Positions 1 through 3,000 of a stretch of DNA of 62,297 nucleotides are shown here, one piece after another. The first letter of the stretch is position 1. Each line of letters opens with the position of its first letter. Position numbers: made by a program. The stretch lies in assembly GCF_024298765.1 (NCBI RefSeq), contig NZ_CP101213.1, one strand, 5' to 3'. The DNA comes from Escherichia coli (GTDB lineage: Bacteria; Pseudomonadota; Gammaproteobacteria; Enterobacterales; Enterobacteriaceae).

Positions 1-3000
1 GTGCAGCTTGCTGTGATTAGCAAACGTCACTGGTCTGAACTATCACCGGAAGAGCAGGTCCGTTTCTGGCAGGACTACGAAGCGGGAATTGAAAGCTCAT
101 TCCTGGTCCCCCAGGAAAACAAAGGCGGAACAACAAAACGTCGCCGGGGTGAACATTCCACTAAGCCAAAGTGTGAGAATCCAGCCTGGTTCCGTCCCGA
201 CAGCTATAAGGCGCTGGGCGGACAGTTGGGCCACGCTTACAATCGTCTCGTTAAAAAAGACCCGGTAACTGGTCAGTACACACTCAGAATGCACATGTCG
301 TTGCATCCATTTTATGTGCTGAAACGTCAGAGTGTCGGTCGCAAATATAAGTTCCGACCGGAAAAACAGCGGCTGCTCGACGCAATATGGGTTGTACTTG
401 TGAGTTTTTGTGATCGTGGATTGCACACTGTCGGCATGTCTGTCTCCCGCCTGGCAGAAGAAATAAGTCCAAAAGACAGTAAGGGAAACGTTATTCCTGA
501 AACCGCAGTCACAGTATCGCGCCTTTCCCGTCTGCTGGCAGAGCAGGTTTGCTTTGGCACGTTGGGAACGTCAGAAAAGACGATATGGGATCGTGAATCC
601 CGCCAGCGACTGCCGAAATACGTCTGGATCACCGAAACTGGCTGGAAAATGCTGGGAGTTGATCTGGTGAAACTTCAGGAACAGCAACGTAAACGCCTTG
701 CAGAAAGTGAAATCCGTCTGCAACTGATTAAAGAAGGCGTTATCCGCGAGGGCGAGGAAATCTCTGTTCACTCGGCTCGTAAACGCTGGTATGCGCAGCG
801 TTCTCTCGATGCCATCAAGTTCCGACGAGAGAAAGCAGCAAAGCGCAAACGTGCCAATCGCCTTGCAAAACTGCCGTATGATGAACAGCGAAACGAAATT
901 GCACGGTTTATTCTGAAACGTATGCCGCCGGACGAAGCGTACTGGTGCACTAAAGAAAGATTAGAGCAACTGGTAGCCAGGGATCTACGTCAGCTTGAAC
1001 TGGCCCTGACAGCTTCGCCACCCCACTAGTTTAGCTGCCTGATACAATCGGCACTCTCTTCAGCCCCTTCGGGGCTTTTCGTGTTGCCTGCATTTCATGA
1101 AATTCCTCATTTTTGACGACCGTTTTTCATTTTGTCCCGCTCTGACAGTTTTTTGATGGCCACAATCGGGTATCGGAGCTAAACCGCCTTCGGTTATTAA
1201 CAAAAACCCGCAAACGAATAACTTCAGAAAGCAGCAAACGTAGAAGATCAAACCCGCAATATATTCTTAACCCCTGTTCTTTAATCCCCTGCGTTGCTTC
1301 GCCGCAGGGAAAATATTTATCTTTGAAACAACTGTGGATAATTACAAAAATGCCTTCGCTTGCAGCGGCTAACGCCGCGCCGCTCAGAATATAAAAGTAC
1401 CTCCCACCGCTTCGCGGCGGGCATATGGACTTCTGCCTAATGAAAAACAAAGCCCCTCCAACCCTCCTACAAAAAAACGCTGCAAATACTCAGCCACAGC
1501 GCCCAACCCATCACTGAAAAGCGCCGCCGCCCCCGCCCGAAGGGCGGGAACAACATCGCTTTCAATAATGGATGTTGTAACTAAGAAATTACATGGCTGT
1601 CAGTCTTCTGGCTGGAAGTACCAAGTACACGCTCGTAAGCGGTCCTGGCGGCCCGCTAACGCGGAGATACGCCCCGACTGCGGGTAAACCCTTGTCGGGA
1701 CCACTCCGACCGCGCACAAAAGCTATTTCATGGCTGAAAGCGGGTATGGCTTAGCAGGATGGGGATAGGTAAGGTGAAACCTATCAATCAGTACCGGCTT
1801 ACGCCGGGCTTCGGCGGTTTTACTCCAGTATCATATGTAACAACGGAGTGCCGCCTTCCATGCCGCTGGCGCGGCATCAAAAAAGAAAGCCCCCCAATGA
1901 CGGGGGAAATAGCGTTTTGATCAAAATAATAATGCTAGTGTGCTTCTTGCGTGCCATTCCAGGCACAAACTAAATTTAACGTTTCGTTAACTACAAAGAA
2001 ATCCGATGAGTTAATCACTTGCGAAATAAAAATCATATAGTAAATTACTATATGATTTTGCGTTGTTTCGGAGAATTAAAAAATGCCTTTGATTGAATAC
2101 ATCAACAAGTTCTATCGGGGGAATCAGGCATCGTTCGCCAGGCTGACCGGAGTTCAACCTGCGCAGGTAACACAGTGGATCAACAAAGGATTCATCGTGG
2201 TGAATCACACACTGTATAGTCCACGCCGAAAGCTGGGAATTTAATTCCTGGTCAATATTTGACATCCTCCACGCCCTGAAGGACGGGGATATAAGGCGCA
2301 CTGTATCCTGTTGTCTGGCAGAAAAAAGAAAGCCCCGTAGTTAATTTTTCATTAACCCACGAGGCGATCCCAATACTTCAACAACACCAGGATAGACTTT
2401 TACCGCCCTTTACGCAATACCATGTATTTTCAAGTTTCTGGTCGATATATAATGTTGTTGGCGCTTGAGGCTTTCTGCCTCATGGCGAAAAGGTGGTTTG
2501 TATCTTGTTGTGCGGCAGAAAGAAGAAAGCCCCGTAGTTAATTTTTCATTAACCCACGAGGCGATCCCAATGCTTGAACAACATCAGGATAGCCTCTTAC
2601 CGCGCGTTACGCAAGGAGAAGAAGGCCATGAAACAGCCGAAAAACGCCCTGACCTGGTGTTTATTAATCGTGTGCTGCACATTGTTAATATTCACGTATC
2701 TGACCCGGAATCGTTTGTGCGAGGTCCGGCTGAAAGACGGAGACAGGGAGGTTACGGCAAGTCTGGCTTACGAATCCAACGGTAAGTAGCAACCCGGAGG
2801 CGGGCGAAAGCCCGCCTTTTTGGGGATGATGTGGTTCTGGCATTAAGCGCCTTTACAAAGGGGGTATTCTGTACGGATACCCCCTTTTTCCATGTATTTT
2901 CAGGATATTAACTGGTGAATATGGTATAATTAGTCAATATGACAGCAATTATTGAGGCGAGTATGCAGCCCAAAAAAACACCCGTGATTGTGGTCAAAAA

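Follow-up and report, generated by a model that had tools for sequence, protein, structure and literature searches.

A toxin-less second hok leader that retains a sok gene, upstream of the hok/sok locus of an IncI2 plasmid

An IncI2 (mcr-1-type) plasmid of Escherichia coli carries a single complete hok/sok killer locus (copy B) and, upstream of it, a gutted second copy that has no toxin (copy A; Table 1). The window, that is, the whole stretch of contig NZ_CP101213.1 that we analyzed, is 62,297 nt long. A preliminary description had suggested that the upstream copy could be either a second locus in decay or an extra target or source of antisense RNA; what survives in its sequence is a sok gene with its promoter and, because the surviving part is precisely this gene, "source" is better supported than "target." We think it somewhat probable that copy A is a decaying locus in which sok-A, to judge from its sequence, would still be transcribed and would supply extra Sok-like RNA to the control of hok-B. 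The decay itself is ordinary for toxin-antitoxin loci and, being the pattern expected for a duplicated locus, a modest surprise; it was previously unannotated here, with public annotations blank over the upstream copy.

Table 1. Features of the two hok/sok copies and their surroundings (positions within the window)
Feature	Position	Strand	Basis or remark
Upstream flank, TTCCTGGTCAATAT	2245-2258	+	In single-copy IncI2 plasmids, lies immediately 5′ of the hok -10
Fused-end stub (miniature) of an IS200/IS605-family (IS609-like) tnpB element, 45 bp	2259-2303	.	Plasmid comparison
Copy A, second hok leader fragment	2304-2417	+	Homologous to 2501-2614
Sok-A antisense RNA (predicted), 61 nt	2322-2382	-	Homology with R1 Sok; fold
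sok-A promoter (predicted)	2389-2417	-	-35 TTGCGT 2412-2417, 17-nt spacer, -10 TATCCT 2389-2394
Duplication junction	2418-2448	+	Repeat family; plasmid alignments
hok-B promoter -10, TATAAT (predicted)	2448-2453	+	7 nt 5′ of the homology-defined hok mRNA end
hok-B mRNA	2460-2890	+	R1 primer match; Rfam; folding
sok-B gene	2519-2614	-	-10 TATCCT 2586-2591, -35 TTGCGT 2609-2614
Sok-B RNA (predicted), 61 nt	2579->2519	-	Homology with R1 Sok
mok reading frame, overlapping hok and starting upstream of it	2570-2785	+	PF17496 (DUF5431)
hok toxin gene, 53 aa	2628-2789	+	PF01848; NF007279
3′ processing hairpin of hok-B mRNA	2798-2818	+	Predicted fold, -25 kcal/mol
fbi element, AAGCGCC	2845-2851	+	
Terminator-like hairpin with T-run, hok-B	2857-2890	+	Hairpin fold

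Every hok/sok part that we tested for can be recognized in copy B: toxin, mok, leader, tac/fbi, hairpin, and antisense gene. The Hok-family frame is intact, as first described, and passes both profile cut-offs (PF01848, 61 bits against 22; NF007279, 96 bits against 73; aligned 1-51/52); public records label it a Hok/Gef family protein. The leader frame said to overlap it is mok, which matches DUF5431 from end to end (144 bits, 1-70/70). Rfam model RF01794 (hok leader/sok; gathering score, 59) matches 2459-2630 at 98.4 bits over model positions 1-157/157. The mRNA 5′ end, GGCGCUUGAGG (tac), is an exact match to the R1 hokF primer, and in the predicted minimum-free-energy fold of 2460-2856 (z, -5.7), its first 8 nt pair with 2844-2851 (tac/fbi). 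The hok-B -10 lies back-to-back with the predicted sok-A promoter at a separation of ~30 bp; the equivalent TATAAT hexamer is split by an IS in plasmids L004 and L007. On the opposite strand, sok-B has a putative promoter of its own (-35, 17-nt spacer, -10), and its predicted RNA overlaps the mok start. At the 3′ side, a terminator hairpin had been noted at ~2797-2820 and the locus had been ended at 2830. That hairpin corresponds to the R1-type 3′ trimming (processing) hairpin, because the R1 hokR primer ends at the homologous position, 2818; a terminator-like hairpin does exist at 2857-2890, and the mRNA continues through fbi to this hairpin, ~60 bp beyond the end first given.

Copy B shares all parts, in the same order, with R1 hok/sok (parB) and its homologues flm, srnB, and pnd (R1-type elements as defined in PMC1635323 and PMC9841398). 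Like R1, it has a hok mRNA that is weakly promoted and highly folded, with tac/fbi pairing, a mok frame overlapping hok, and a 3′ processing hairpin, together with an antisense Sok of ~61 to 64 nt (11-nt 5′ tail, stem-loop, and U-tail) whose promoter, TTGCG(C/T)-17-TATCCT, lies inside the leader. It differs from R1 in the sequence of the Sok tail/mok start region (GUUCAAGCAUU versus GACUAGACAUA) and in being accompanied by a toxin-less second sok gene. R1-type loci were recognized by exact matches to published R1 primers, and the ends of R1 Sok were taken from published primers (PMC1635323) located in L017/L018. The locus is flanked by a small Cro/YdaS-like ORF on one side and a ProQ/FinO gene, PcnR in pHNSHP45, on the other (PMC8053102). 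The hok/sok of IncI2 mcr-1 plasmids has so far been cited just as a "putative" stability module, with that of pHNSHP45 termed merely "putative" (PMC8053102).

The two copies form a direct repeat of 125 nt at 88% identity (2293-2417 versus 2490-2614, 197 bp start to start). The leader copy of ~120 bp that had been placed at 2302-2425 is present, but the repeat stops at 2417. True A/B homology probably starts at ~2302-2304, because 2259-2303 is an IS remnant; the leftmost four mismatches of the repeat fall within it. Copy A contains no hok promoter, tac, hok ribosome-binding site, hok ORF, fbi, or terminator, its mok start codon is ATA (2373-2375) in place of ATG, and its Rfam score of 23.7 bits (2294-2434) lies under the gathering score. 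The absence of a toxin frame, noted from the start, holds: an ORF listing gives no Hok-like ORF in 2245-2460, and neither a 39-aa ORF spanning the junction (2422-2541) nor the other short ORFs of copy A are Hok-like by eye. By its toxin, mok start, tac/fbi, promoter, and Rfam match, copy A is not a toxin-antitoxin locus. Further Rfam matches near the repeat at relaxed thresholds (trpB motif, mir-7177, and others) were dismissed as chance-level, being far below gathering. A suggestion from the Rfam alignment that 2293-2301 (AAGGCGCAC) is a tac remnant was rejected, as the IS end in L004 and L015 is identical.

The preliminary description of a partial tandem duplication fits what remains, which is part of the leader, but not how it arose. 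Right of copy A, the junction part CCATGTATTTTCA (2420-2432) duplicates the sequence right after the hok terminator (2890-2902), and the adjoining part TTTCTGGTCGATAT (2435-2448) duplicates 2245-2258. The latter positions hold the upstream flank, TTCCTGGTCAATAT, whose role is read from the alignment with single-copy plasmids L002, L003, and R721; together with a second copy at 2435-2448, it forms the 14-nt direct repeat bracketing the extra 190 bp. Since the right junction (2420-2448) thus fuses post-terminator with pre-promoter sequence, we conclude that a tandem duplication took in the entire locus, one copy of which was gutted afterwards. A primary duplication of the leader only is rejected on the same junction and on copy A of L007, which keeps the full 5′ leader. 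At the exact position of the 45-bp stub, plasmids L004, L007, L009, and L013 carry a full 1.3-kb tnpB element (NF040570, 385 bits) with the same end sequences as the stub; a target duplication is absent. The stub site in the window contains neither tnpB nor tnpA, making this a stub or miniature and not an autonomous element. The 45-bp unit occurs once in the window, and solo units are also present in E. coli chromosomes.

We propose that the history began with tandem duplication of the whole locus, probably through unequal recombination between two IncI2 plasmids with different hok leader alleles. Copy A would then have lost everything from the hok ribosome-binding site through the terminator, an IS200/IS605 tnpB element would have entered the -10 of its hok promoter, and the IS would have collapsed to the 45-bp stub, with the 5′ tac region deleted. 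The remainder (2259-2447) would amount to a complete minus-strand sok gene, with promoter, 61-nt RNA, and terminator. Three comparison plasmids (L007, L009, and L013) combine the IS with a leader-only copy A and copy B, the L007-type copy A retaining the hok mRNA 5′ end. The form seen in the window recurs in ~294 database records at ≥99% identity, and the arrangement is identical or nearly so in ~300 independently sequenced plasmids from several genera. A single-copy form is found in 182 IncI2 plasmids, among them R721, whose leader carries IS150.

Copy A has the sequence features of a Sok antisense RNA gene: a promoter, the RNA layout, and complementarity to the mok region. The 5′ end of the predicted RNA was set by homology, R1 Sok starting 7 nt after the -10. 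From this end, a single-stranded tail of 11 nt leads into a stem-loop that is followed by a U-tail, with a fold (-20.4 kcal/mol; z, -3.7) of the same structure as that of Sok-B. Sok-A and Sok-B are identical at 58/61 positions; they differ at nt 4 (G/C), 8 (U/C), and 58 (U/C), with two of the three differences in the 11-nt recognition tail. The hexamers and spacing of the sok-A promoter are identical to those of sok-B, all four substitutions lying in the spacer, and are conserved (TTGCGC-17-TATCCT) in R1-type and two other hok/sok loci. A generic sigma-70/terminator consensus scan of 1900-3100 returned no promoter and one weak terminator; the scan is too strict, given that the known sok promoter matches the consensus at 7/12 positions and that the hairpin at 2857-2890 was also missed. 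With hexamers at 7/12, the promoter call therefore rests on homology with R1.

Two patterns argue against copy A being neutral debris, in which sok-A would be silent or have no measurable effect on hok-B, stability, or fitness; we regard this as possible, if on balance unlikely. The 15 A/B mismatches spare the hexamers and the Sok stem-loop entirely (0/51 positions, against 15/74 elsewhere; Fisher P = 3.5e-4), and variation among copy-A sequences is confined to the loop, spacer, discriminator, tail, and U-tail. This signal derives from a small number of independent events, the plasmids being mostly of one clonal lineage, and the two copies may in part have diverged before the decay began. Moreover, three independent deletions stop 0 to 20 nt from the sok-A gene and spare it: the copy-A 3′ deletion reaches the edge of the -35, the 5′ deletion ends 19 nt past the 3′ end of the RNA, and that in L008 terminates within the U-tail repeat. 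Promoter and terminator of sok-A are also intact in sequence. Survivorship bias could nevertheless account for the mismatch pattern, the deletion ends, and the intact promoter and terminator in the absence of function. Natural A/B recombinants (L004 and L006) and single-copy plasmids (L002 and L003, and the 182 of IncI2 overall) indicate that sok-A is dispensable, and the carriers are mostly near-identical members of one epidemic lineage, such that prevalence may reflect hitch-hiking. Along its whole length, Sok-A is complementary to the hok-B mRNA save for one G:G mismatch and one G.U pair, both in the recognition tail; these differences weaken the predicted tail-target pairing from -15.5 to -9.7 kcal/mol, and the mismatch, too, favors a relic. 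Chance similarity or an assembly artifact is already refuted by the length and identity of the repeat, by the recurrence of the arrangement in hundreds of independent complete plasmids of several genera, and by the existence of structural intermediates.

The tail differences also bear on the improbable reading that Sok-A is kept because its tail fits the other hok leader allele, present on rival IncI2 plasmids, and would protect host and plasmid against the killing that displacement of an incompatible rival sets off. Every copy-A variant has the "C" allele (CTTCAAC). Among IncI2 plasmids, 116 carry this allele in a functional single-copy hok locus, versus ~415 that have the "G" allele, as copy B does, and for the Sok-A tail, the predicted pairing energies are -13.5 to -15.5 kcal/mol on the C-allele target and a weaker -9.7 to -11.7 kcal/mol on hok-B. 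Inhibition of competing mobile elements has been put forward as a role of plasmid-borne orphan antitoxins (PMC11541004, PMC12548467). The allele difference is, however, a single base that is equally explained by a two-allele origin of the duplication, and Sok-B itself pairs with the C-allele target at all but one base. We give little credence to sok-A being a selectively retained, expressed orphan RNA antitoxin tuned to the C allele (about one-fifth of IncI2 plasmids); if it were, Hok from incompatible rivals would have no killing effect on the epidemic mcr-1 IncI2 lineage, and sok-A would be an RNA-based anti-addiction device in plasmid-plasmid competition. Still harder to credit is a role for the plus strand of copy A, which, read through from the ORF at 2083-2244, would sponge Sok, or a convergent sok-A that would regulate this upstream gene. 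Over 2322-2382, the complementarity of the plus strand is complete to Sok-A and almost complete to Sok-B, the consensus scan found no plus-strand terminator in 2244-2460, folding of 2245-2330 gives nothing remarkable (z, -0.7), and the L007-type copy A retains the 5′ end of hok mRNA. In the window form, though, copy A has neither its own hok promoter nor tac, which is required for refolding of the mRNA into the Sok-binding form (PMC9841398); its mok start is ATA, and a sponge would increase toxin expression, an effect that selection would hardly favor.

If sok-A is indeed transcribed from a decaying locus, as we favor, Sok-A would enlarge the pool of short-lived antitoxin, which keeps mok/hok from being translated and leads to cleavage by RNase III. 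Killing of plasmid-free cells would be unchanged, because loss of the plasmid removes both sok genes. Retention of sok-A would require no special benefit: deletions of a toxin alone are harmless and those of an antitoxin alone lethal, making orphan antitoxins the expected debris. The zorO-orzO/zorP-orzP locus of E. coli O157 is likewise a tandem type I duplicate whose antisense RNAs differ by a few bases of the recognition region, although it keeps both toxins where one remains here; experiments on that locus show that single-base differences abolish cross-repression (PMC3919570), which counts against an action of Sok-A on hok-B. The ancestor of the present arrangement would have been a two-copy Hok islet. 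Such islets, which arise via duplication in place, hold 10% of Hok genes in groups of 2 to 6 homologues <2 kb apart (bioRxiv 10.1101/2025.08.07.668861); that survey was protein based, and a toxin-less copy such as copy A would go uncounted. Known orphan antitoxins and anti-addiction modules resemble sok-A in being toxin-less antitoxins on mobile elements that could neutralize a competitor's related toxin (PMC11541004, PMC12548467), but they are mostly proteins, whereas here the antitoxin is an RNA of putative function. Literature on IncI2 hok, sokX, and orphan antitoxins with hok/sok did not describe the present orphan, and that on pHNSHP45 RNA-seq, judged from PMC11878559, which touches on hok/sok in passing, yielded no transcript data for the region. 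Published lists give sokX simply as an sRNA.

In the annotation of E. coli K-12, sokX is a remnant, a sok gene surviving at a locus without a working toxin, and the chromosomal hokA, hokC, and hokE of K-12 were reportedly found by Pedersen and Gerdes in 1999 to be inactivated by IS elements. As in these decayed loci, the IS here lies beside rather than inside the toxin frame and sok outlives the toxin; the IS200/IS605 element in the hok-A promoter and IS150 in the R721 leader parallel the IS inactivation in K-12. Unlike the solitary chromosomal cases of K-12, the orphan here resides on a conjugative plasmid, with a copy that looks functional in tandem beside it. The commonest IncI2 form has two sok genes per one hok, at a locus where IS insertions, deletions, and recombination between repeats are concentrated in a hotspot. 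Plasmids with zero, one, or hybrid copies exist in nature and constitute a ready-made allelic series, suited to testing what antitoxin dosage and tail specificity do to colistin-resistance plasmids in terms of stability, fitness cost, and competition.

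Judged by its sequence, copy A, the second hok leader fragment (2304-2417) upstream of the intact hok/sok locus (copy B), is defunct as a toxin-antitoxin locus but does have what defines a sok gene. A repeat search of the window recovered it as a 125-nt direct repeat (2293-2417 versus 2490-2614; 88% identity, 197 bp apart), and no Hok-like open reading frame (ORF) was found in copy A, in agreement with the preliminary description of an upstream leader copy devoid of a toxin ORF. In copy A, the ATG of mok (the frame overlapping hok) is replaced by ATA; the hok promoter, tac (the hok mRNA 5′ end), fbi (the 3′ element pairing with tac), and the terminator are absent by comparison with copy B and related plasmids; and the Rfam hok-leader/sok score is only 23.7 bits (gathering score, 59). 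Three substitutions separate the predicted antisense RNA, Sok-A, from Sok-B: G replaces C at nt 4, and U replaces C at nt 8 and at nt 58, the last making the U-run longer. The outer edge of the sok-A -35 hexamer is the exact end of the repeat. Mismatches between the copies number 0/51 nt in the promoter hexamers plus Sok stem-loop and 15/74 nt elsewhere (Fisher p = 3.5e-4, with few independent events behind this statistic); 4 of the 15 lie inside the IS stub, without which the comparison is 0/51 versus 11/65. Since a generic scan of 1900-3100 called no promoter, the promoter predictions (see the table) rest on homology.

Features of the hok/sok region and its flanks (window coordinates)
Feature	Position	Strand	Basis or remark
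Cro/YdaS-like ORF, 53 aa	2083-2244		One side of hok/sok region; weak PF15943 match
Sok-A RNA, predicted	2382->2322	-	61 nt; predicted fold identical to Sok-B
sok-A promoter, predicted	-35 TTGCGT 2412-2417, 17-nt spacer, -10 TATCCT 2389-2394	-	
TATAAT	2448-2453	+	7 nt upstream of mRNA 5′ end
hok-B mRNA 5′ end	2460	+	Exact match of published R1 hok-mRNA 5′ primer
Sok-B RNA, predicted	2579->2519	-	61 nt
sok-B promoter, predicted	-35 TTGCGT 2609-2614, 17-nt spacer, -10 TATCCT 2586-2591	-	
mok	2570-2785	+	Full-length DUF5431 in frame overlapping hok
hok ORF	2628-2789	+	PF01848, NF007279
3′ trimming hairpin	2798-2818	+	Homologous base is the end of R1 hokR primer
Terminator-like hairpin with T-run	2857-2890	+	Folding; stronger than hairpin 2798-2818
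ProQ/FinO-family gene	2939-3535		Other side of hok/sok region

Copy B has the sequence features of a regular hok/sok family member (Rfam hok-leader/sok, 98.4 bits at 2459-2630), and both protein models match the hok gene that had been called intact. In the predicted fold of 2460-2856, the first eight bases pair with 2844-2851 (z = -5.7); as modeled, this is the tac/fbi closure, which holds full-length hok mRNA inert (PMC9841398, element definitions). A terminator had also been reported; the hairpin taken for it, at 2798-2818, corresponds to that at which R1 hok mRNA is trimmed (PMC1635323 for R1 primers). With the stronger terminator-like hairpin at 2857-2890, the locus ends ~60 bp beyond its earlier limit. 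In the predicted fold of Sok-B, 11 nt at the 5′ end stay free, followed by a bulged stem-loop of 14 bp and a U-tail; R1 Sok (64 nt) has been described with this architecture (PMC1635323). Sok starts 7 nt past TATCCT at the two comparison loci having all four R1 primers (L017 and L018), and their TTGCGC-17-TATCCT layout is kept in L019 and L020. Most RefSeq records (e.g., NZ_CP029184) annotate hok as a 40-aa protein from GTG 2667 (2667-2789); the 53-aa form from ATG 2628, annotated in CP039587, aligns to 1-51/52 of the Hok family model.

The duplication had been taken for a partial, tandem one of the leader. The leader is indeed repeated, but copy A ends on its right (2418-2448) in a junction that joins CCATGTATTTTCA, which elsewhere follows the hok terminator (2890-2902), to TTTCTGGTCGATAT, which elsewhere precedes the hok promoter (2245-2258). 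The whole locus was therefore duplicated in tandem and gutted later; a primary duplication of the leader alone is ruled out by this junction of both hok flanks. The Sok target is the C allele (CTTCAAC) in all copy-A variants and the G allele (CTTGAAC) in copy B, and functional IncI2 hok loci carry C in 116 records and G in about 415. With both alleles circulating and one in each copy, unequal recombination between two different plasmids is suggested.

The structural alleles of IncI2 plasmids at this site, counted as records in the plasmid collection, fall into several forms. (i) A single locus in which TTCCTGGTCAATAT runs directly into ATAATG... occurs in 182 records (R721, L002, and L003). 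(ii) In L004, a 1.3-kb IS200/IS605 tnpB element (NF040570, 385 bits) interrupts the single locus between CAATAT and ATAATG, within the hok -10 and without duplicating its target. (iii) About 20 records (L007, L009, and L013) have this IS, then copy A, then copy B; here, copy A spans the complete 5′ leader, with the -10 remnant at one end and the sok -35 at the other, and nothing further. (iv) In the window form (about 294 records at ≥99% identity, including L010-L012 and L014), only a fused-end stub of 45 bp (2259-2303) is left of the IS, and copy A has lost more of its 5′ side, which now ends 19 nt past the Sok-A 3′ end. (v) A/B recombinants have one hok ORF behind the truncated A leader (L006); tallied together with L005, a 97.5% variant of form (iv), they make up about 28 records in the 95-99% band. 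(vi) In L008, the copies of AAAAAAGAAAGCCCC at 1879 and 2322 bound a deletion that removed ORF 2083-2244 and the stub and again spared sok-A. The order of events is the one that explains eight structural forms most parsimoniously, rather than a phylogeny. In L006 (CP018106, pMR0716_mcr1; 1520-1870), the single hok ORF follows the stub and truncated leader without hok promoter or tac; because tac is needed for toxicity, by R1 mutagenesis (PMC9841398), this hok is probably inert. In R721 (L016, NC_002525; locus about 1040-1060, ~window 2550), IS150 lies inside the Sok stem-loop/hok leader (...TTTTTCATTAAC|TGTACTGCACCC...), a further, independent insertion into this short locus.

In sequence, the stub agrees with the ends of the complete IS found at this site and is, on that evidence, a genuine mobile-element end. 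The 45-bp unit also stands alone in E. coli chromosomes, at several sites and in many genomes (597 at ≥80% coverage; e.g., CP028654, L015, 301-346), which suggests a miniature non-autonomous derivative of the IS609-like tnpB element. The unit appears to insert beside TTAT, the hok -10 TATAAT on the opposite strand. Pedersen and Gerdes (in 1999) reportedly found E. coli chromosomal hok loci inactivated by IS elements, and sokX is a sok remnant surviving in the E. coli chromosome. Local duplications of hok loci have been reported (bioRxiv 10.1101/2025.08.07.668861); searches for IncI2 hok/sok found no description in the literature, and no public annotation, of this orphan sok in IncI2 plasmids.

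Most likely, sok-A still fires and would yield a short-lived Sok-like RNA. Past its tail, predicted Sok-A is perfectly complementary to hok-B mRNA; its 11-nt first-contact tail has a G:G mismatch and a G.U pair, and the pairing energy predicted for tail and target is -9.7 kcal/mol, versus -15.5 for Sok-B. Sok-A would then enlarge the antitoxin pool in plasmid-bearing cells, perhaps inefficiently, and would leave killing after plasmid loss uncompromised. No benefit is required for sok-A to be retained, since a deletion that takes the toxin and leaves the antitoxin is tolerated, unlike the reverse. Against a significant role, natural variants dispense with sok-A, its carriers are largely clonal, and single-base differences abolish cross-repression in zor/orz (PMC3919570); that copy A is a silent relic is a possibility of some weight, though clearly the lesser one.

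Sok-A might instead act as an anti-addiction RNA against C-allele rivals, with which its tail is predicted to pair better (-13.5 to -15.5 kcal/mol); orphan antitoxins provide a precedent (PMC11541004, PMC12548467), and we nevertheless consider this improbable. Hardly credible is a decoy transcribed from the + strand of copy A, since the window form has neither promoter nor tac, the latter required to form the Sok-binding fold (PMC9841398). An artefactual repeat is excluded; dozens of complete IncI2 plasmids are 100% identical to window 2000-3000.

The predicted sok-A (-) and hok-B (+) promoters stand back-to-back within about 40 bp (2412-2453), and the duplication also brought other sequence to lie ahead of the hok-B -10, so that hok-B may be transcribed differently here than in plasmids with one copy. 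The window plasmid is a conjugative IncI2 plasmid of the mcr-1 (pHNSHP45-like) type, with repA at 1-1029, judged from co-linear records; its ProQ/FinO gene is PcnR in the literature, a regulator of copy number (PMC8053102). About 25 bp before the Cro/YdaS-like ORF lies a perfect inverted repeat of 15 nt (2029-2059; AAAATCATATAGTAA / TTACTATATGATTTT), possibly an operator or a bidirectional terminator. The window holds three copies of AAAAAAGAAAGCCCC (1879-1893, 2322-2336, and 2519-2533); the first forms, on the minus strand, the tail of a hairpin that resembles a terminator (about 1913->1879). In some IncI2 plasmids (L011 and L014; MG299129 and MG210938; locus 1-277), another tnpB element, distinct from the one described above (WP_001672025 / WP_172692508), lies a few hundred bp upstream of this region.
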